Of a DNA stretch of 64,000 nt, positions 5,282 through 22,238 are shown piece by piece. Under the pieces are notes generated by a model. It was not told where the DNA came from, searched no databases, and saw only the letters and a list, made by a program, of their open reading frames with translations. The position numbers were made by a program, and so were the translations under genes. The DNA is from a virus (Duplodnaviria > Caudoviricetes): the IMG/VR virus record IMGVR_UViG_3300033120_000845, positions 1 to 64,000 of that record; one strand, given 5' to 3'. Every line of letters begins with the position of its first letter. Position 1 is the first letter of the stretch.

Positions 5282-8200
5282 TCATTTCACTAAATTTTTA
5301 AAATTATTAACTTCTTTCTCAGTTTTTACGGCGAAAGTTTCTCCTTGCATTACACAATCTTTAAATAGTTCTGCTTGTTTTTTGGTGCAAGGGTTTGATA
5401 GTTGAACCCAATATTCTCTAATATCGTTTTCTGTTATCTTTTGTTGTTTGATTGCTATTGCTATGTGTTTCATAATAAATATTGTTCAGCTTCATCAATT
5501 GTGTCGAACCATTTATAATATTCAATCCTTTGTATTTTCTCTGTTTCAAATTCTTTTTCCGCGACTTTTCCGAAAAGATTTTGTACAAATCTATACTTTT
5601 TAACTTTTGTTTTCGGCGTATTGTTTAGGTGTTTCCATACTGTTACTTTTTAACCTTTAATACTTTACCTGTTGGTTCTTTTCCGCAAAAGTCTAAACCT
5701 CTAAATACTCCATCTGTAAATAGCTCAGCTTCTCTTCTTGTTTTAAATGAATATAAACCTTCTAAAAGAAGTGAGTTGTAATGCCAAATTGTTAGTGCGT
5801 ATGTTTTCATAATGTTTTTAACTTTTCTCTAATGTCATATAATTTACATCTTATTTCGTAACTGTCTGTTCCAAAATCTTGAAATAGCTTTTTACCTATA
5901 CTTTCTAATTCTTTAATTATGTCTTCCATAAAATTAATTTATTTGGTAAATAATTTCTTTTCTGTTTTTTGCACTTCTTATTTGGAGGGTCGCGTTTTCT
6001 TTTTCGCATACCTCTTTAAACTCATTCGCCCACTCTTTTAATCTGTCAAGTTTTTCGTATGGTATAAGAATAGCGTACATTAAGTTGGGAGCAAATGTGA
6101 ATTCTCTTAAACTTGATAAGGCTTTAAAAGTATTATTCTCTTTGGTTTTCATGTAAACCATTAGATTACAGTCTGTTGTTTTCATAATATTTCAGTTATT
6201 TCGCCGCCAAAGAAATAAAAAAGACAGCAATTAATATTCACTTCAAATATAATAATAATTTTCTATTCTACAAAATAAAAAGATTACAATTAATTCGGTT
6301 GATAAAAATCTACATCCAATACTTCGCAAAACTCCCAATTACCTTTACTTACAAAATCATAAATATCAGGTTCATTTTCGCTTTCTGAATTGTTTTCTTC
6401 TTGATATTTATCCCATTTCTCACAAACTAAATCGTAATTGTGTTCTTGTGTTAAAACAGTTCCTACTATTTCTTCACTAAATTTATCGTATAATTGTATT
6501 GCTTTCATAAGTTTTAGTTTAAAGGTTTATAATATTCTTTTTCGCCACGAATAAAAACTAAAGAAGGAGCTCCAACTTTATTATTCTCATAAAAGTTAAT
6601 AATTTCATACCCCATATACTTCTTTAAATCTTTTTTAGAATATTCTTTACAATGTTCTAAAGTATCTGTTGGGTTTTCTGTTAACCACTTTTTTATTTCT
6701 GTTTTTATTTCTTCTTTGTCGAATTTTTCAAACCATTTTATAGGTTGGTCTTTTTCTTGACTGAATAATAAGTGTGCCATATTACTAATTTTTATAATCT
6801 AACATTTCCTTTTTAGTAACTCTATCAAAACCGTAAAACTCTAAAAAGTCGTTAATATGTTTTGCTGTTGTATTGCTAAACCAACCGTAAACGCTCATTT
6901 TGTTTGTTTTGTGGTTATAACTTGCTACTCTTTTACCATAGCTTATTAAGTCGCTATAATGGTCGCCGTCTGAATTTACATATTCGTTTACGTGGTTATT
7001 CTTTTTGTTATTGATATAAAATGTTTTCATAATCTAATTAAATTTAATAGGTTGACTTTCTACTTTTTATTAACTTTCTATACTCGTTTTTCATAATTTC
7101 GCGGGTAAAAGAATTAAAAAAAAGATTTACTATAAACAAAAGATACAATCTCTAACAAAGAAACAGTAACAGTTTCCTGATAAACATATTCCTCTGAATA
7201 ATCAAAGAATATAATAACATCCTTACCCATTTCTGTAAAATCATGAACAGATTGTTTAATGTTAAGATGCTCTTTACAATAAGATTCTAATAGTTGTCTT
7301 TTCATAACATGAATATTAAACCGATAACAAATAATTGATAAATTAAAGCCGCTCTAAGTACATTATGATTAATACTTTCAAAGTCTTCTACTAAATGTGG
7401 GGAAAATATACCAACAAAAGGGGTGAATAAAATTAAATATTTCATAGCTTTAATTTTGTTTTTGGGGGTAACTTACCGCCCTTACATTAATAATCCTTTA
7501 AAACGTTTGTAAATGGTATTCTCGTCTGTTTTTACAATCTTTTCTATTAGTGGAATAAACTCGCCGCAAAAAAGGAATAAAACAGAAAAGAAATACTTTA
7601 TAAAGATAATAAATAATTCCAACACTACCTACAATAAGATAGTAATTTATTTAAAAAACCCCTAACTTATATTCAATATTTTGTCTACTTTGTAATTCTG
7701 ATAAGTGTAATTCAACTTCTACTAATTCAGAATTAACATAAGTAACACTCACAACTTGTAATTTATCAAAAGGTGCTTCATAACCTTGTTCAATTTTTAC
7801 ATATTCCCCTACTCTTGGAATAACTTTAAAATTAGAAGGGAATTTATTTTTAAACTTGTCTATATTAGTTTTAAATATAATTTTCATAATACTTTATTTT
7901 AATTGGTTAAAACTCGCCGCAAAAAAGAATTAAACAGAAGATAAACTAAACACAAACAGTTAACAACCCATAACTATTATAATAACAACTAATAGGAGGA
8001 TAACTATTTAAACTATTGATATCAGATACAACCTTCTGAATATTTATATTATAACAAGATACATTACTCTTTATACGAACTTCTGTAATAGCTAACCTCT
8101 TTTCTTCAAATAAGGATTTAATAATAAAATCTTTGTACTACTTTTTATCGTTATTCAATAAATATTTACTGTTTCTCGTGTTACTGTTAAATGCAATTGT

Positions 8201-14561: not shown

Positions 14562-15467
14562 TTAAACATTTTCATTAGAAAAATTATTAAAAATTTCCCC
14601 ACCTTTTAAAAAAGAAAAAATATGAGCAATCACATCAACAGTCCACCCGTTTCCTATTGCTTTATATCTTTGCGTGTCGCTGAAACCAATTGTGTAATCA
14701 ATTGGTAGAGTTTGAAGTATTTCACATTCCTTTGGTGTTAATCTTCTTAATATACCGTTGGATTCTACAATCTGCCCTTCTCTACTATTACTATTATTTT
14801 TGTAATATGTTGCAAACAAACATTTAGATTTATTAGCAACTAAATCAAACCCTTGTTTTTCCCTTACTCGTTCCACAGCACGTTCTGTTAAATAATACTT
14901 TTCATCAACATCGGTTTCAATTATATTTCTAAAATCCAAACCTAAATCAATGGGTTGTTTTACATTCGGTATATTAGTCCAATACAATCTATTACGTCTT
15001 TGATGGCTTAATAATGCTGAATTTATCTTTATAGGTTTTACCCCCAATGCTTCTGAGATTAAATCCTCCCATTCTTTTTTCATTACAACATTTTCAAGTA
15101 AAAAGTATTTTGGTTTAGTTTCATTTAAAACTCTTACATATTCCCAAAATAAACCACTCTTACCTTCAAATCCAACCTTATCACCCATTTCTTCACGATA
15201 TAAACCCATTGTACTAAATGATTGACAAGGTGAGCCACCAATAAGTAAATCAATTTTTGGTAATTCACTTGCTTTTACGTCCACTACACTTCCTATATGT
15301 TTTGTATTTGGGTAATTCCTTTTACACATCTGAATTGCATAACCATCAATTTCAGAAGCGAAATAGTTTTCAATACCAATATCTGCTCGTTCAAGTGCAA
15401 TTTGTCCGCAACTAATACCATCAAATAATGATAATACGTTTATTTTTTCTTTTTTGCCTACGCTCAT
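14562..15467 (-). CDS. dcm: DNA (cytosine-5) methyltransferase, cassette 6
   Basis: Motif I LSLFDGISCG, motif IV GGSPCQ, motif VI ENV, motif VIII QRRNRLYW, motif X IGNGWTV. Confidence 0.92.
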   Translation of the reverse strand: MSVGKKEKINVLSLFDGISCGQIALERADIGIENYFASEIDGYAIQMCKRNYPNTKHIGSVVDVKASELPKIDLLIGGSPCQSFSTMGLYREEMGDKVGFEGKSGLFWEYVRVLNETKPKYFLLENVVMKKEWEDLISEALGVKPIKINSALLSHQRRNRLYWTNIPNVKQPIDLGLDFRNIIETDVDEKYYLTERAVERVREKQGFDLVANKSKCLFATYYKNNSNSREGQIVESNGILRRLTPKECEILQTLPIDYTIGFSDTQRYKAIGNGWTVDVIAHIFSFLKGGEIFNNFSNENV

Positions 15468-15527
15468 TTTTAATAATTTTTTGTTTAGTATTTCAATTTA
15501 AGTTTTCCGTTAATTAACCGCACCAAC

Positions 15528-15657
15528 AGGTAACACGTGCTATAAGCAATAGCGGGTTCTGTGCTATCCGAAAGTTTCTGCTGTTTATTATCGTTTGTCA
15601 TAATTTGAAAGTTCTTTGTTATTAATCCGCTACTGCTCATAGCACCATACGTTATCT
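15528..15657 (+). mobile_element. attC-like hairpin site S6
   Basis: AGGTAAC-ac-GTGCTATAAGCAATAGCGG-loop-CCGCTACTGCTCATAGCAC-catac-GTTATCT; GTTA overlaps the stop of ORF 15652..15846. Confidence 0.85.
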
Positions 15658-17028: not shown

Positions 17029-17316
17029 TTATAAATGTGTTTTAAATGTTGTATTAAACTGTTTATTATAATTTTCTATTTGAAATTTTATTTCCGCGCA
17101 AGTTTCAAAATTAGACCACAGCTCAAAGAAACTAAGGAGAATTAAAAGATTGTTTATATCATATAACCTAAGAATATTAATATAGTCATCTCTGTCAGAA
17201 TATCGGATAATTTCATTGAATTCTATATCTTCGGGAAATACTCCATCAGGGATAAAAGCTATATGTAATTTCCAAAACTCTTTTAATTCTTCAACGGTAA
17301 GTTTCTTTGTAATCAT
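17029..17316 (-). CDS. hypothetical protein
   Basis: 95-aa ORF. Confidence 0.6.
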   Translation of the reverse strand: MITKKLTVEELKEFWKLHIAFIPDGVFPEDIEFNEIIRYSDRDDYINILRLYDINNLLILLSFFELWSNFETCAEIKFQIENYNKQFNTTFKTHL

Positions 17317-17424
17317 TCCCTATAAATAAGATTCTTTATTTTAATAATATTGTAAAATCATTCTTGCGCTTGTCTATTGAATTTTGGAAGGCTTTAGTTA
17401 TGAACAGGACTTTAGTCAACCAAT

Positions 17425-17649
17425 ATGAAACAACATTTTTACAAATTAAAAGACATAGTTGACATAAGCGTTTTTATATTAACTATGTGGCTATCTTTTT
17501 TAATTTTTGTTGGCTATACACTAAAAGAATACACTTGTGTTACCCTTTCATTTTATTGGACAATAATTCTTTTTTATATACTTCCTTTTCTTGTAATAAT
17601 TCTTTCTTTTTTACAAAAAACGATATCAATATCACAAAAAAGACAATAA
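17425..17649 (+). CDS. small 2-TM membrane protein, probably in a truncated cassette
   Basis: Plus-strand hydrophobic ORF in a minus-strand region, left of site SA. Confidence 0.45.
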   Translation: MKQHFYKLKDIVDISVFILTMWLSFLIFVGYTLKEYTCVTLSFYWTIILFYILPFLVIILSFLQKTISISQKRQ

Positions 17650-17777
17650 CAAAAGATAATGATAATGCACATCGTAATTCAGGAACAGATAGAGCCTTAT
17701 TTAACTTTAAATAGGTTTCATATTCATACATTGAAATTCAATATTTTTTCTAACAGTTAACGTTGAGCCAAGCTTAC

Positions 17778-17911
17778 CGCTAACGTTTTGTGGCTTTATG
17801 AAGTTGCGTGCCTCCAAAACAGCCGTTAATAAATTTTTTCTTTTCTTCCCGCACGCACGGAAAATTCCAAACACACCCTAAACAAGCAATTTCATAAAAC
17901 CTCTGTTAGCA
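17778..17911 (-). mobile_element. attC-like hairpin site SA (inverted relative to S0-S6)
   Basis: CGCTAAC-gttttgt-GGCTTTATGAAGTTGC-loop-GCAATTTCATAAAACC-tct-GTTAGCA; its reverse complement has the S1-S5 architecture. Confidence 0.85.
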
Positions 17912-17970
17912 GTAGTATTTTCTTTCAAACTTAGTAAATTTATTTTATCTTCGTCAAAAGATATTTAATT

Positions 17971-18267
17971 ATGATACATAAAGATAATATAAGCACCGAA
18001 CATTATATAAACTCAATAGCTCCCGACTACTACATTGAATTACCTTTCAGACCGGAAGAAAAAATAGAAGAGAAAGATGTTACTTGTGTATTCTCTATTA
18101 TTACAGAACCTTTAAAATTAAGATGTGTAGGCATTGATTATTTCGATATGATTGATAACGATGTTTTATTAGATAAACGTTACGGAGAATATTTGCCAAG
18201 TCATATATACGTTTTTAAAGGAAGACCTTTTGATATTGAAGCTGAAAGAAACAGACTAATTATCTAA
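17971..18267 (+). CDS. hypothetical protein, cassette 7
   Basis: 98-aa ORF between SA and SB. Confidence 0.7.
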   Translation: MIHKDNISTEHYINSIAPDYYIELPFRPEEKIEEKDVTCVFSIITEPLKLRCVGIDYFDMIDNDVLLDKRYGEYLPSHIYVFKGRPFDIEAERNRLII

Positions 18268-18453
18268 AAGATTTTTATAGAACTTATCGTTTGATGTATA
18301 ACTCTCAACACCTCTTAATTGAACTGTTGCTGATTTTCCGCAATCTTTTAAATACTCACAAAATTCTTCAAGGTCTTTATACTCTCTACTTTGAAAGTTT
18401 TCAAGTATTTGAGATGCTAATTTAGAAAAGTATTTTTCCTTATTATTGTCCAT
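18256..18453 (-). CDS. hypothetical protein, cassette 7 (convergent)
   Basis: 65-aa ORF convergent with 17971..18267. Confidence 0.55.
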   Translation of the reverse strand: MDNNKEKYFSKLASQILENFQSREYKDLEEFCEYLKDCGKSATVQLRGVESYTSNDKFYKNLLDN

Positions 18454-18487
18454 AATATTTATTTACAGCAGTTTATCGTAATATTAC

Positions 18488-18620
18488 TGCTAACGTCCCG
18501 CCAGCTTTGTGAAGGTGCAATTTTCACTCACTAACGATGGATTAATAATTAATTTTTATTCTTGCACCAAAACTTTAAATTAAACCTTTAGTTGCACTTT
18601 CACAAAACTGCCTGTTGTGC
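18488..18620 (-). mobile_element. attC-like hairpin site SB
   Basis: TGCTAAC-gtcccgc-CAGCTTTGTGAAGGTGCAA-loop-TTGCACTTTCACAAAACTG-cct-GTTGTGC. Confidence 0.85.
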
Positions 18621-18628
18621 GTTCGTTG

Positions 18629-18925
18629 TTATTCTTCTTTCGCATTTCTTATCAAATACGCTCCTGCAATTGCCATTAAACCAAAATATAAAGGTGTCGC
18701 AGATGTGTATCCCGCACCTCCACCATCATTATAAAAAGCCCCACCTGACCATTCAGAGCTTAGATTACTCATTTGTATTATAGCACCACAATCTTTTATT
18801 AACAGATTTATTGTAAATAGTAAAACCGATAATACAGGTGGAAATAGTAAAATGTAACCAATTGTTTTTTGAATATTTTTCATAATATTTAGTTTTAAAT
18901 TATCTGAGTTGTTTTTAATTTTCAC
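18629..18925 (-). CDS. 2-TM membrane protein, cassette 8
   Basis: Hydrophobic segments GYILLFPPVLSVLLFTI and LYFGLMAIAGAYLI. Confidence 0.7.
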   Translation of the reverse strand: MKIKNNSDNLKLNIMKNIQKTIGYILLFPPVLSVLLFTINLLIKDCGAIIQMSNLSSEWSGGAFYNDGGGAGYTSATPLYFGLMAIAGAYLIRNAKEE

Positions 18926-18969
18926 TAAGTTCTGAAAATTTTTCTTACGTTTACATTTTAATTTTCAAT

Positions 18970-19425
18970 ATGGAAGATTTAATAAAACTAACAGAAAAAA
19001 TACATCCAACAGCTACGAGATTTTTCATTAATCATTTTTTTGTTGCATTATTTTGGTTTATTCCGTTCATAATGTTTAAAAAGGAATTTTTAGATTACTC
19101 ATTTCACATACAAATGATATTAGTTTTCTGCATAAGTTTAATTTGGTATCTTGTTAGCTGTGTTATAAATGTAATATTATTGAATATATTCAATCTTGTT
19201 GATAAATACGGATACTACTTATTAGAGCTTACTACAGTTTTTACAATATTATTTTTATGCGCTTTAATAAATGTTGGATACTATTATTCATTTACAATCA
19301 CTAAATTTCTAAAGCTTTCTTTTATACCTATTGTAATTACGCCCTTTACAATATTCCTAGTAATCGAGCTGTTGTTTTTGATATTAAAAGGAATATTGAA
19401 AGTACAAAAAAAGCAAAATAACTAA
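18970..19425 (+). CDS. 4-TM membrane protein, cassette 8
   Basis: 151 aa with four hydrophobic helices. Confidence 0.7.
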   Translation: MEDLIKLTEKIHPTATRFFINHFFVALFWFIPFIMFKKEFLDYSFHIQMILVFCISLIWYLVSCVINVILLNIFNLVDKYGYYLLELTTVFTILFLCALINVGYYYSFTITKFLKLSFIPIVITPFTIFLVIELLFLILKGILKVQKKQNN

Positions 19426-19564
19426 GTGTACTCAAACTCTCTATTACGGTTAATTTCTTGTTTCCGTCTTTCAAATATGTATATAGTCTAATATGAACAG
19501 GTATTGATGTGATTAACCAAACTATAAAGTATATTGACAACACCGTTTCTAATTTCATTTTCAC
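19346..19564 (-). CDS. small membrane protein, cassette 8 (convergent)
   Basis: 72-aa hydrophobic ORF overlapping the 3' end of 18970..19425. Confidence 0.4.
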   Translation of the reverse strand: MKMKLETVLSIYFIVWLITSIPVHIRLYTYLKDGNKKLTVIESLSTLSYFAFFVLSIFLLISKTTARLLGIL

Positions 19565-19598
19565 GTCTTGTTTTTAGGTAAAGTTGACGTACAATGAC

Positions 19599-19732
19599 GC
19601 ACAACGTCCATAGGCTTTGTGTCAGGTGGCGCGAACCAACACAGACCTCTCTGATTAATAATTATTTTTTAATTGCGCCAAAACTTTCCAAATATTCCTT
19701 TAACCGCCACTTGCACAAAACCTTTGTTGTAC
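19599..19732 (-). mobile_element. attC-like hairpin site SC
   Basis: GCACAAC-gtccat-AGGCTTTGTGTCAGGTGGCG-loop-CGCCACTTGCACAAAACCT-tt-GTTGTAC. Confidence 0.85.
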
Positions 19733-19805
19733 GACGGCTTTTATTATTTCCCGCCAAGTTATTAAAACTTTTTCTTACTTTTGGTTTTCACTTTAAATTT
19801 TTAAT

Positions 19806-20159
19806 ATGGCTGAAATAAACACAACAAAAAATGATGAAATATCAGGTTTGAAAAATAAATATAATCCTGATAAACATTTACCAACACCATTTCCTGAACA
19901 ATTTAAATATGAGAATTGCATTTGTGTATTTTACTCAGTTATTTTAAATGAAAAGTATAAAACTTTAAAAAGAGTATATCATAATGCTAAATTTTATAAA
20001 TCATTTACAGAAAACGATATGGTGGGTTTTGATTATAAAGGCTTTTCTTTGAACGGAGTTTACATATTAACTTCTACTAAAGAAGAAAGTGTTTCAATCT
20101 TAGAAGATATAAAATCTAATACAGAAAATTATAAAGAAAATTATTTAGACTGTATTTAA
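19806..20159 (+). CDS. hypothetical protein, cassette 9
   Basis: 117-aa ORF between SC and SD. Confidence 0.7.
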   Translation: MAEINTTKNDEISGLKNKYNPDKHLPTPFPEQFKYENCICVFYSVILNEKYKTLKRVYHNAKFYKSFTENDMVGFDYKGFSLNGVYILTSTKEESVSILEDIKSNTENYKENYLDCI

Positions 20160-20362
20160 ATTTTCGGTGGTTTTTCAAAAGCTGCTCCGTTAAAATAACT
20201 TGCTCTTTTTAGCTCTTCTTTAAGAATTTTTAAAAATACCTCTATTTCTGAATACCGAAGTTGGTTTAAATGAGAGTAAGTTACGCTTAGTGCTTTACTA
20301 ACTATTTCTTTACTCTCTTTTGTTAAGTGTTTGTATTTTTTACTCATAGTTTTATTAAACAA
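20156..20362 (-). CDS. hypothetical protein, cassette 9 (convergent)
   Basis: 68-aa ORF whose stop overlaps the stop of 19806..20159. Confidence 0.5.
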   Translation of the reverse strand: MFNKTMSKKYKHLTKESKEIVSKALSVTYSHLNQLRYSEIEVFLKILKEELKRASYFNGAAFEKPPKI

Positions 20363-20393
20363 CTTATTTAACGTTCTGTTGAGTTAAGCTGTT

Positions 20394-20490
20394 GTACAAC
20401 TTGTAAATATACGCATTGCGCTTTTTAAATATATCTCGGTTTTATTGAATATATTTACTTTTGTGCATTGCGTATATTTTTTTGTTAATA
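20394..20490. mobile_element. terminal hairpin site SD (distinct class; candidate attI-like primary site)
   Basis: GTACAAC-ttgt-AAATATACGCATTGCGC-loop-GTGCATTGCGTATATTT-tttt-GTTAATA; symmetric spacers; 7 nt from the groES stop. Confidence 0.7.
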
Positions 20491-20497
20491 ATTAATT

Positions 20498-20746
20498 TTA
20501 AGGTTTTGGTGCTTCGGCAATTACATAAAGTTCATTTAAAACTAAATATTTTTTACCGTTATATTCAATTTCTTTCCCGCGCTCCTCATCATAAAAAATA
20601 TACATCCCTACTTTATAAACTTCTGTTTTTTCACCAATAGAAATAACTTCAGAAACCATATTCTTTTGATTAGGCATAAAATTCATAGAGTTTGGATTCT
20701 TTTCAAATCTTACAACGACTTCATTCTGCTTAAATTTTAAATCCAT
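20498..20746 (-). CDS. groES: co-chaperonin GroES-like
   Basis: EVISIG...KVGMYIFY...GKEIEYNGKKYLVLNELYVIA; adjacent to GroEL. Confidence 0.8.
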   Translation of the reverse strand: MDLKFKQNEVVVRFEKNPNSMNFMPNQKNMVSEVISIGEKTEVYKVGMYIFYDEERGKEIEYNGKKYLVLNELYVIAEAPKP

Positions 20747-20747
20747 A

Positions 20748-22238
20748 TTACACTACACTTATAATTCTTGTATTAATAATTAATTTTGCCACAGACACTG
20801 CATTTTCTAATGCCACTCTCAAAGATTTTTTAGCATCAATAATTCCTGACTTTCTATAATTTACAACTTTTTTAGTTTTAATATCATAAAGTTGTCCATA
20901 TCTGTTAATTTGACGAATCGCTTTTTCAGCTTCTACATCACCATTAGTTAAAATCTGCCTGAAAGGTTCACAAATAGTGTCTAATAAAATTTGATATCCT
21001 AAATCCTTTTTATTTTTACCACTTAATTTTTTAGCAATCGACAGCATAGTTGCTCCACCTCCTGCTACAAACCCTTCTTCAACAGCACACTCTAAAGCCC
21101 TCTTAGCATCATCAAAACGGTCAAACTTTTCTTTTCTTTCCGAGTCTGTTTTTCCTCCAACATAAATTGTAGCAACACCATTCTCTAAATTAGCAATTCG
21201 CTTTTCAATAAAATCTGTTTTTTCTTCAACTTGCTTCAAAGAACTCAAATGTTCTAAACTTTTTTCATTTAATTCTCTCTGAATAATGTAAGTGCGGTCT
21301 TTTGAAACTATCACTTTATCTGCTGTCCCTGCGTGAATTACTTTTGAAACTCCCGGAACAAAAACCTCCGCACCTGTATAAAAAGCAATGTCTTGTAAAA
21401 GCTGTTTTCGTTCTTGTCCAAACTCAGGGGCTTTAATAACACAAATATGTCTTCCTCGCCTGTGAATATTTACAATTGCATTTAAAGCGTCCTCAGAAAT
21501 GTCTTCAACAATTAATAATAAGGGGCTTGAAGAGTTGGTGATAATTCCGTCAACTAAATTAGAATTAGAAAGACCCAGACTATTTTCAAAAATTACAATC
21601 TCTACATCTGTTTCATCAAAAGTTAAATTGCTTTCTTTAGTTGTTAGAAATGGCGAAACATATCCTTTCTCGATGTTCATACCTTTAATAACTTTCATTG
21701 TAGTTGTTGGAGAATCTGCTTCAATTACATCCACAATATTTGCATTATCAAAGGCTTCAATAAGCATTTCAGAAATTTCTTTATCACCATTGGAAGAAAT
21801 GTAAGCAATATCTTTTAAATTGTCTTTATCTGCATCCTCTGCTAAATTGTTAAGTTCTGAAATAACATCCGTCATTGCTCTATCAACACCTTCAATTATT
21901 TCTCGTGGAGTTGATAAATCTTTAGCCTCTAAACTCTTTTTAACCAAAGCCTGCGCAAAAACTAATGAAGAAGTTGTATTATCCCCCGCCTCCGTAACAG
22001 TTTTTACCGCCACTTGTTTAGCAAGATTAGCTCCCATCTGCTTTTCTTTCCTAATTACTTCGTCTTCATCATTGAAAAATATTGACTTACAAACAGAAAC
22101 ACCATCTTTAGTTGCAGAAACAGTTCCTAAATGCCCTTCAATCATAGCAATTTTTCCTTCCCCACCTAAAGTAAGTTTTGTAGCATCGCAAGCCACATTA
22201 AATCCAAAAATTAAATTACTATTATCTAATGTCGTCAT
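20748..22238 (-). CDS. groEL: chaperonin GroEL (phage-encoded)
   Basis: TLGGEG, TKDGVSV, AGDNTTSS, KAPEFG, GFVAGGG, GIID..K motifs. Confidence 0.95.
   Translation of the reverse strand: MTTLDNSNLIFGFNVACDATKLTLGGEGKIAMIEGHLGTVSATKDGVSVCKSIFFNDEDEVIRKEKQMGANLAKQVAVKTVTEAGDNTTSSLVFAQALVKKSLEAKDLSTPREIIEGVDRAMTDVISELNNLAEDADKDNLKDIAYISSNGDKEISEMLIEAFDNANIVDVIEADSPTTTMKVIKGMNIEKGYVSPFLTTKESNLTFDETDVEIVIFENSLGLSNSNLVDGIITNSSSPLLLIVEDISEDALNAIVNIHRRGRHICVIKAPEFGQERKQLLQDIAFYTGAEVFVPGVSKVIHAGTADKVIVSKDRTYIIQRELNEKSLEHLSSLKQVEEKTDFIEKRIANLENGVATIYVGGKTDSERKEKFDRFDDAKRALECAVEEGFVAGGGATMLSIAKKLSGKNKKDLGYQILLDTICEPFRQILTNGDVEAEKAIRQINRYGQLYDIKTKKVVNYRKSGIIDAKKSLRVALENAVSVAKLIINTRIISVV

Follow-up and report, generated by a model that had tools for sequence, protein, structure and literature searches.

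Integrons are the standard example of a device that captures and shuffles genes, and they are regarded as almost missing from Bacteroidota and uncommon in phages. In integrons, arrays of promoter-poor cassettes lie between imperfect hairpin sites (attC) with inverse AAC/GTT cores. The first bases of a cassette are complementary to those that begin its own site, one end of the array is occupied by a tyrosine recombinase of the Xer/IntI branch, beside a hairpin-less junction, and DNA methyltransferases are among the cargo. Xer recombinases can use a single-stranded DNA hairpin as their site. T4-type phages have promoter-stem-loop elements (PeSLs), repeated hairpin intergenic modules that flank small accessory genes in hyperplastic regions and are thought to act by homologous recombination; we know of no PeSL with AAC/GTT cores, pairing of cassette ends or a dedicated recombinase. 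Surveys with IntegronFinder found integrons almost absent from Bacteroidetes (PMC9024848). Clusters of attC sites lacking an adjacent integrase (CALINs) do exist in virulent phages; only 17 were found, some of which recombined with IntI1, and one published example belongs to a Polaribacter (Bacteroidota) phage (Qi et al. 2023, PMC9892861). Here we describe a locus at positions 17782-20486 of IMGVR_UViG_3300033120_000845, the 132,413-nt record of an uncultured Bacteroidota phage with genes for a terminase, a portal protein and a UvsX-like recombinase. The stretch that was analysed, the first 64 kb of that record, is called the window below. Very probably, three mobile gene cassettes (C7, C8 and C9) of an integron-like site-specific recombination system form an array at this locus.

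The properties listed above for integrons recur in this system. Its sites share with PeSLs the arrangement of repeated hairpin-bearing intergenic modules beside small accessory genes, and with the CALINs of virulent phages it shares clusters of sites in a lytic phage without an adjacent integrase, as well as methyltransferase cargo. Still, the system is integron-like and not a canonical integron, because its recombinase lacks the IntI domain and the polarity of gene and site is reversed in the phages: in phages the site comes before the gene, which may begin within it, whereas an integron gene precedes attC. Further differences from integrons lie in the site, which has a 4- to 5-nt bulge on one side only, by the apparently cut core, and two fixed G.T pairs; in the outer stem, of 15 bp as against a 7-bp R box; in an integrase that is co-directional with the genes; and in a taxon that the surveys found nearly free of integrons (PMC9024848). 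The published CALINs were called by attC models and tested with IntI1 (PMC9892861), whereas the present family has a phage-borne, non-IntI recombinase and is far commoner. Among Xer systems, XerA and XerC-like proteins are the closest relatives of the present recombinase, but XerCD on the folded single-stranded attP of CTX-phi and archaeal XerA resolve dimers or integrate whole phages at dif and are not known to build gene-cassette arrays.

A second, inverted array of integron-type mobile cassettes had been proposed at this position in a sequence-only reading of the window. Structured and covarying sites, paired cassette ends and the recurrence of C8 elsewhere bear this out. Three of the sites, SA, SB and SC, share the motif GCTTTRTG...CAYAAAAC (three matches, against none in 100 shuffles), are predicted to fold as imperfect hairpins, and have the reverse-complement architecture of five sites at 745-2748. 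A covariance model built from the sites of this genome, R1, gives 16 strong sites in the 132-kb genome, counted as four arrays and a solo site; they fall in array 1, a solo site, the groES-side array under study, a third array at 102646-106698 and a single site at 131839-131933 (Table 1). In the consensus hairpin of 14 genome sites, 15 of 21 pairs show compensatory changes. From the outside inward, a site consists of the cores, a G.T pair, a one-sided bulge by AAC, a covarying stem of about 16-20 bp and a free loop. Its fixed features are the AAC/GTT cores, the G.T that adjoins them and the four to five extra bases on the AAC arm only, together with a C/A mismatch within GGCTTTG/CAAAACC and an invariant G.T deeper in the stem.

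The same structure holds outside this genome. For 143 distinct sites from other viral contigs, in an alignment fitted to R1, which somewhat favours covariation counts, 98% of cells pair, versus 72.8% in shuffles, and the covariation score is 0.602, versus 0.133 when shuffled (0 of 500 reach it) and 0.03-0.08 with slid partners. Compensatory changes are seen at 14-15 stem pairs. Sites are 85-133 nt long, with a mode of 123-127, and AAC/GTT is invariant in 185 of 185 cassettes. The family thus has the properties by which attC sites are defined, namely, inverse cores, an imperfect hairpin with conserved structure and a length within 57-141 nt. In a canonical attC site, an unpaired spacer with both sides open separates an R box from an L box, and the extrahelical bases are on the R''-L'' arm, away from the cut; here, spacers read by hand are 7-8 nt versus 3 nt, and the bulge lies beside AAC, the core that would be cut.

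Pairing between the two ends of a cassette is a further trait of the system. The bases after GTT and the bases before the next AAC are complementary at 15 (C7), 9 (C8) and 13 (C9) of 15 nt, and both exceptions in C9 are G.T. The cassette-end motifs that the sequence-only reading had listed all lie where it had placed them (Table 1). Across 183 adjacent site pairs, from this genome and about 120 other loci, cassette ends are complementary at a mean of 6.2 of 9 positions, compared with 3.66 +/- 0.09 when partners are shuffled and 3.56 between the flanks of one and the same site. The end duplex reaches position 15, counted from the G of GTT, and then falls to chance; position 11 is a G.T in 80% of cassettes, and this G.T is present in the array under study as well (GTTAGCAGTAG versus ...TTACTGCTAAC). 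In the orthologous C8 cassette on a metagenome contig described below (L145), the end duplex has changed on both sides in a compensatory way (GTTGTGCGT/ACGCACAAC here versus GTTGTACCT/AGGTACAAC there). We imagine that in an excised circle the cassette ends would add a 15-bp outer stem, with its G.T at position 11, to the hairpin of the site. Such an extension of the hairpin suggests that the substrate is folded single-stranded DNA, as it is for attC. In integrons, complementarity between the beginnings of a cassette and of its own site is what a G|TT crossover predicts.

The only Phage_integrase match in the genome is a 275-aa tyrosine recombinase with Pfam Phage_integrase and SAM-like N-terminal domains. 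Its NCBIfam scores all lie below the cut-offs, at 206.8 of 220 for XerA, 166.9 of 329.6 for XerD and 156.2 of 335 for XerC; for the integron integrase, TIGR02249, it scores 165.1 against a cut-off of 265, in two stretches. IntI proteins are told apart by an extra domain of about 35-60 aa between patch III and box II. In an alignment with VchIntIA (2a3v), 20 residues of the phage protein stand opposite 62 of IntI, and the IntI-specific domain is therefore missing. Homologues with 86%, 80% and 61% identity are encoded immediately after co-oriented arrays on two viral contigs and on a contig labelled Chitinophaga, from a metagenome-assembled genome, and six more viral loci, selected by the site pattern, have homologues of 30-61% identity directly after co-oriented arrays. 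In bacteria, a 36%-identical recombinase stands at the end of three large arrays; the relative in one of the genomes is a 346-aa protein with an N-terminal extension, again without the IntI insertion.

At the junction beside the integrase, the last cassette ends in ...AAC, no hairpin follows, and the sequence continues with ATA..TATGTATT, the integrase starting about 50 nt further on. This hairpin-less AAC|ATA junction without a core is common to this genome and another locus (L013), and it looks like a counterpart of attI, which in integrons lies with a Pc promoter beside intI. We consider it likely that the phage's only tyrosine recombinase would serve the groES-side array in trans. On a 64-kb phage contig (L010/G001, L011), the recombinase is 86% identical and GroEL only 30%, and no array follows the chaperonin genes. 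Given this disparity between recombinase and GroEL, the module of recombinase plus array seems to move between unrelated phages.

The site system is widespread in Bacteroidota and their phages. A strict 18-base site pattern occurs on at least 118 viral contigs, and a search of the first 80 such loci with R1 gives 242 sites, grouped in co-oriented arrays whose size reaches about 20. In a sample of 151 genomes from the phylum of the Chitinophaga assembly, 65 (43%) have sites at E <= 1e-5, some in arrays of 15-18 or more. R1 finds no site in Polaribacter phage P12002L, which has a published CALIN, and none in Polaribacter phage Leef_1 or in Cellulophaga phage Ingeline_1, even though integrase homologues are present. 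In the literature that was searched, we found no description of an integron-like system of phages or Bacteroidota with an Xer-type recombinase.

Cassettes have been exchanged between distant phages. The 151-aa protein of C8 has a counterpart on two metagenome contigs (L145 and L146), with 81% nucleotide and 82% amino acid identity, and the homology covers 18919-19574 only. On L145, too, the array lies directly after a chaperonin gene; its GroEL is 33% identical, its other cassettes differ, and the cores that flank C8 and its counterpart are no more alike than those of any two sites (identity, 0.63-0.64). No close GroEL relative was found on the viral contigs, and 17300-20800 has no blastn match in cultured phage records. 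Homologues that occur without flanking hairpins, in conserved synteny with groES, would have spoken against the cassette reading; instead, the homologues lie between hairpins, and the position of the array is shared while its content differs. A methyltransferase cassette present at both ends of the contig (the window at 61-548 and the genome at 131930-132413, or L008:11931-12414) has 92% identity between its copies from precisely the GTT onward, although the preceding sites differ. These copies are either two diverged copies within an array or joined strain variants of a circularly permuted genome.

Contigs from other samples (X1-X3), for which uncovered parts of the stretch were not counted as absence, point to the same borders. 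X2 contigs match 18491-19275 and 19341-19607 at more than 99% identity and then diverge, and the match of an X1 contig begins only at 20398, where the AAC of site SD lies. Among 14 pairs of homologous cassettes, 4 are discordant in their flanking cores, representing three independent cases; in these, the left core, upstream of the main gene, is kept (0.92-1.00) and the right core is not (0.63-0.70), and none is reversed. From the discordant pairs, the contig breaks on the AAC side, the integrase-side junction, the conservation of SD and the methyltransferase cassette, we infer that a mobile unit consists of a core and the body that follows it on the right in the plus strand, with the cut at AA|C. 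The units would then be 17784-18493 for C7, 18494-19604 for C8 and 19605-20399 for C9.

Some joints of other kinds were also seen. Each side of joints 17916>18483 and 17928>18479 spans only 20-22 nt and lies in palindromic sequence, and we do not interpret these two. X1 has two backward joints, 19783>18414 with 21 extra letters and 20450>16565 with 15, which may reflect either rearrangement of arrays or the junctions of circles.

The orientation of genes relative to sites differs between phages and bacteria. The longest open reading frame (ORF) follows the travelling site in 171 of 182 viral cassettes, compared with 1 of 7 bacterial ones, a small sample; the polarity of the bacterial cassettes is canonical in 6 of 7. 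In the canonical reading direction, with the first cassette at G|TT and a divergent integrase, the phage genes are antisense. In the present array, the main gene of each cassette, lying after its site, is thereby opposed to the surrounding minus-strand genes, and each cassette has a second, convergent gene. That these cassettes and the ORF in the far flank hold the only credible plus-strand genes in this arm of the genome, as had been noted, is consistent with the list of ORFs of at least 100 aa.

The two borders of the array can be placed within this polarity. SD, which the sequence-only reading had covered only by its end coordinate, is the last site of the array, with 11 nt between it and the stop codon of groES. 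SD and its flank GTTAATAATTA are kept directly after the chaperonin gene of L145, though the neighbouring cassette differs, and SD is likely the fixed anchor of the array, where cassettes would enter. At the other border, the end at 17784 (AAGCTTACCGCTAAC) indeed has no partner anywhere in the genome; the best match to the expected partner has three mismatches and lies in array 1. The sequence-only reading took this end for a truncated fourth cassette, a view that our analysis does not favour. The inferred polarity makes it more likely that the unpaired end is the far junction between array and backbone.

What the cassettes encode is less clear than how they are bounded. About 14 remote relatives, 90-119 aa long, were found for the 117-aa protein of C9, and the 98-aa protein of C7 and a 111-aa protein from the SD-side cassette of L145 (E 7e-15) belong to the same family. 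The small convergent partners, whose stops overlap or abut the large ORF, are conserved along with it; that of C9 shares 38% identity (E 4e-14) with the convergent ORF that accompanies family member P0013 in L151. With a shared family and conserved partners, C7 and C9 are diverged copies of one two-gene module. In C8, the 151-aa and 72-aa ORFs are both open in the L145 copy, and third codon positions take most of the substitutions in the 151-aa ORF (26, 8 and 38 at positions 1, 2 and 3). The convergent pairs proposed earlier are thus real, the C8 pair being open in a copy of 81% identity and the C7 and C9 partners having paired homologues elsewhere. Positions 18617-18918 of C8, with the 98-aa ORF and its GGGAGY stretch, have no counterpart in L145 or L146, so C8 may be two fused cassettes, and this part may be what is left of a separate cassette that has lost its site. 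C8 is predicted to encode small membrane proteins, as had been suggested; its hydrophobic stretches can be read from the sequence, and the membrane label itself is a prediction from that reading.

Similarity searches gave little on function. The earlier suggestion that the cargo serves exclusion, defence or toxin-antitoxin functions drew no support from Pfam, PHROGs or PADLOC. Searching the collected loci with the ORFs by tblastn gave nothing, and word-index protein searches with the 117-aa and 98-aa proteins returned only the proteins themselves. As a single sequence, the 117-aa protein gave an unusable AlphaFold model (pLDDT 36.6); a model of the C9 family from a 15-row alignment reached pLDDT 86.4, for which Foldseek found nothing in PDB or BFVD at E <= 0.001. 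A search of the ESM Atlas gave no usable match. VIA-align of the C7/C9 family model gave T4 EndoII at Z 6.0 (root mean square deviation, 3.1 over 88 residues), the UvrC N-domain at Z 5.4 and I-TevI at Z 3.9, all below the level that excludes chance, and the GIY/YIG glycines are not conserved in the family alignment. We take a possible likeness of the large C7 and C9 proteins to GIY-YIG nucleases as a lead only. A toxin-antitoxin pair consists of two small linked genes, one toxic and one that neutralises it; the modules have such linkage and, being conserved, would be compatible with a toxin/immunity-like pair, and our best guess is that the cargo most likely consists of accessory genes for host interaction or exclusion.

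Several observations weigh against the view that this is an array of mobile cassettes. Recombination products of this array were absent from the read evidence, which consists of short contigs from low-depth metagenomes. The recombinase lies about 80 kb from the array, and it would have to act on SA-SD from that distance. R1 does not match SD on its own (plus) strand, with only a weak match (E 0.56) on the opposite strand nearby, and the fitting of the 143-site alignment to R1, mentioned above, should be counted here as well. Near-identical cores at 1987-2073 and at 131843-131929 of the genome carry different bodies on both sides, implying that a second junction, or gene conversion between cores, also operates. 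The eight ORFs have no functional match, with sub-threshold noise only in Pfam, PHROGs and PADLOC. The closest relative found for the C9 protein, 47% identical, is encoded on a bacterial chromosome, and no such site lies within 4 kb of it. Nor did we find a host copy of C7, C8 or C9 between hairpins. An origin of the cassettes in the host, as put forward in the sequence-only reading, therefore finds no backing in host copies, though with the site family in 65 of 151 Bacteroidota genomes a pool shared by hosts and phages is plausible.

The closest alternative in kind is a fragment of a canonical integron, that is, a CALIN with true attC sites on which a host IntI acts in trans. Inverse AAC/GTT cores, an imperfect hairpin of 85-130 nt and end pairing are all as in attC, and virulent phages offer precedents, some of which recombine with IntI1 (PMC9892861). 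We nevertheless regard this as very unlikely: the array-linked recombinase of phages and bacteria has no IntI insertion and falls below the integron-integrase cut-offs, the spacer geometry is one-sided, the phage genes are inverted relative to the site, and R1 finds no site in P12002L, a published CALIN carrier. Moreover, the surveys are near-empty for Bacteroidetes (PMC9024848), yet the present sites occur in nearly half of the genomes sampled. A different kind of explanation would have the hairpins act in regulation, as terminators, promoters or start regions resembling the T4-type promoter stem-loops, while the genes are shuffled by homologous recombination. The sites are intergenic, ORFs of arrays 1 and 3 start within the site loop, SD stands directly behind the chaperonin operon, in the place of a terminator, and an RNA hairpin predicts covariation equally well. 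What a terminator does not need is pairing, or compensatory change, between the ends of cassettes 600-1000 bp long; the invariance of AAC/GTT in all cassettes, homology borders at AAC/GTT rather than within repeats, the constant linkage to a tyrosine recombinase and the lack of any Rfam family matching the site likewise make regulation quite improbable as the whole explanation. Regulatory and recombination roles of the sites are not mutually exclusive.

One can also envision invertible segments in which the inverted repeats at the cassette ends are the recombinase targets, in the manner of a shufflon. Inversion would explain why the groES-side array has genes on both strands and is itself inverted; repeats of 9-15 bp do flank each body, and the orientation of gene relative to site does differ between phages and bacteria. 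The repeats vary by cassette and covary, so that pairing and not sequence is conserved, there are no strand-changing joints among the contigs compared, and the movement of cassettes between genomes and contexts would go unexplained, which leaves inversion extremely unlikely. Hairpin-ended elements moved by an HUH (Y1) transposase, like IS200/IS605 or REP/RAYT, come to mind since many genomes abound in structured repeats with a length of about 126 nt. We find this hardly conceivable, as no such transposase was seen next to the arrays, whose neighbour is always a tyrosine recombinase, and the sites are co-oriented and alternate strictly with bodies whose ends pair.

Going beyond the reading of this locus as an array of mobile cassettes, we lean slightly towards a broader proposal, that Bacteroidota and their virulent phages share a second, undescribed integron lineage. 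It would have a short Xer-type recombinase, a mirrored site cut beside the bulge, and phage cassettes turned so that the site supplies the gene start. The groES-side array would then be a recombinase-less outpost that holds two-gene modules, their large protein possibly nuclease-like, and membrane proteins for conflict between phage and host or between phages. A system structurally akin to integrons, with a different and simpler recombinase, is present in 43% of the Bacteroidota genomes sampled, and one lytic-type phage has several arrays of it. If it is active, hosts and phages share a pool of swappable genes (here methyltransferases, a Mom-like modifier and an RNA ligase), and the system would illustrate a possible origin of IntI-type recombination of folded DNA in Xer enzymes. 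The small gene pairs of the groES-side array would, in that case, be candidates for new defence or counter-defence functions.

Table 1. Features of the groES-side array, its surroundings and related loci. Positions are those of the window unless marked as genome positions.
Feature	Position	Strand	Remarks
Backbone gene	17029-17316	minus	Far side of array
Far flank	17317-17781		From gene 17029-17316 to SA; carries ORF 17425-17649; final AAGCTTACCGCTAAC at 17770-17784
ORF, 74 aa, two-helix hydrophobic	17425-17649	plus	Within far flank
Site SA	17782-17907	plus	126-nt AAC...GTT imperfect hairpin; R1 86.3 bits, E 1.5e-18
C7 body	17908-18491		Ends GTTAGCAGTAGTATT (start, 17905) and AATATTACTGCTAAC (end, 18494) pair over 15 nt, G.T at position 11
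C7 ORF, 98 aa	17971-18267	plus	Paralogue of C9 117-aa protein
C7 partner ORF, 65 aa	18256-18453	minus	Convergent; 37.5% identical (E 4e-7) to partner of L145 member
Site SB	18492-18616	plus	125 nt; R1 92 bits, E 5.6e-20; fold z-score -3.1
C8 body	18617-19602		Ends GTTGTGCGT (start, 18614) and ACGCACAAC (end, 19605)
C8 ORF, 98 aa, hydrophobic	18629-18925	minus
C8 ORF, 151 aa, four-helix hydrophobic	18970-19425	plus
C8 ORF, 72 aa, hydrophobic	19346-19564	minus	Convergent, overlaps 151-aa ORF
Site SC	19603-19728	plus	126 nt; R1 103.1 bits, E 9.3e-23
C9 body	19729-20397		Ends GTTGTACGACGGCTT (start, 19726) and AAGCTGTTGTACAAC (end, 20400)
C9 ORF, 117 aa	19806-20159	plus
C9 partner ORF	20156-20362	minus	Convergent; likely ATG 20347 (63 aa)
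Site SD	20398-20486	plus	89-nt variant hairpin, AAC...GTT, stem ATATACG/CGTATAT
groES-like gene	20498-20746	minus	Cpn10 match, E 3.2e-5
groEL	20748-22238	minus	ORF; L145 counterpart is Cpn60
Array 1	745-2748	minus	Five sites, opposite orientation, plus partial sixth at 1-63
Solo site, same family	15532-15653	minus	Upstream of C5 DNA methyltransferase cassette (14562-15467)
Tyrosine recombinase, 275 aa, Xer/IntI-like	genome 101470-102297	minus	Outside window, beside third array
Third array	genome 102646-106698		R1 matches
Single site	genome 131839-131933		R1 match

The chaperonin genes beside the array come in the order groEL and then the groES-like gene, for which the Cpn10 match is weak (E 3e-5); the array of L145 follows directly after groEL. 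At the solo site, the assembly graph of the source sample breaks exactly, the site forming a 122-nt node of its own, and the assembly depth around it (15460-15652) is 57.5 on the left and 35.5 on the right. Together, the break and the step in depth suggest co-existing genome variants that differ at this point.

Elsewhere in the genome, the cargo of the arrays comprises a C5 methyltransferase, a Mom-like protein, an RNA ligase and an N6/N4 methyltransferase, which are typical counter-defence functions. In array 3, with sites at L007:4651-4778, 6142-6267 and 6671-6797, ORFs begin within the site loop and read through the arm, and unrelated proteins of this array therefore share N termini such as NTEQSNSTKPVL; the site arm CACAAAACCTGTGTTAG encodes KPVL. 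The N6/N4 DNA methyltransferase gene (genome 105693-106714, or L007:7694-8715) consists of two ORFs in one cassette, one of 188 aa with the DPPY part and one of 130 aa with the C-terminal part, about 60 nt apart, and this gene is either broken or split.

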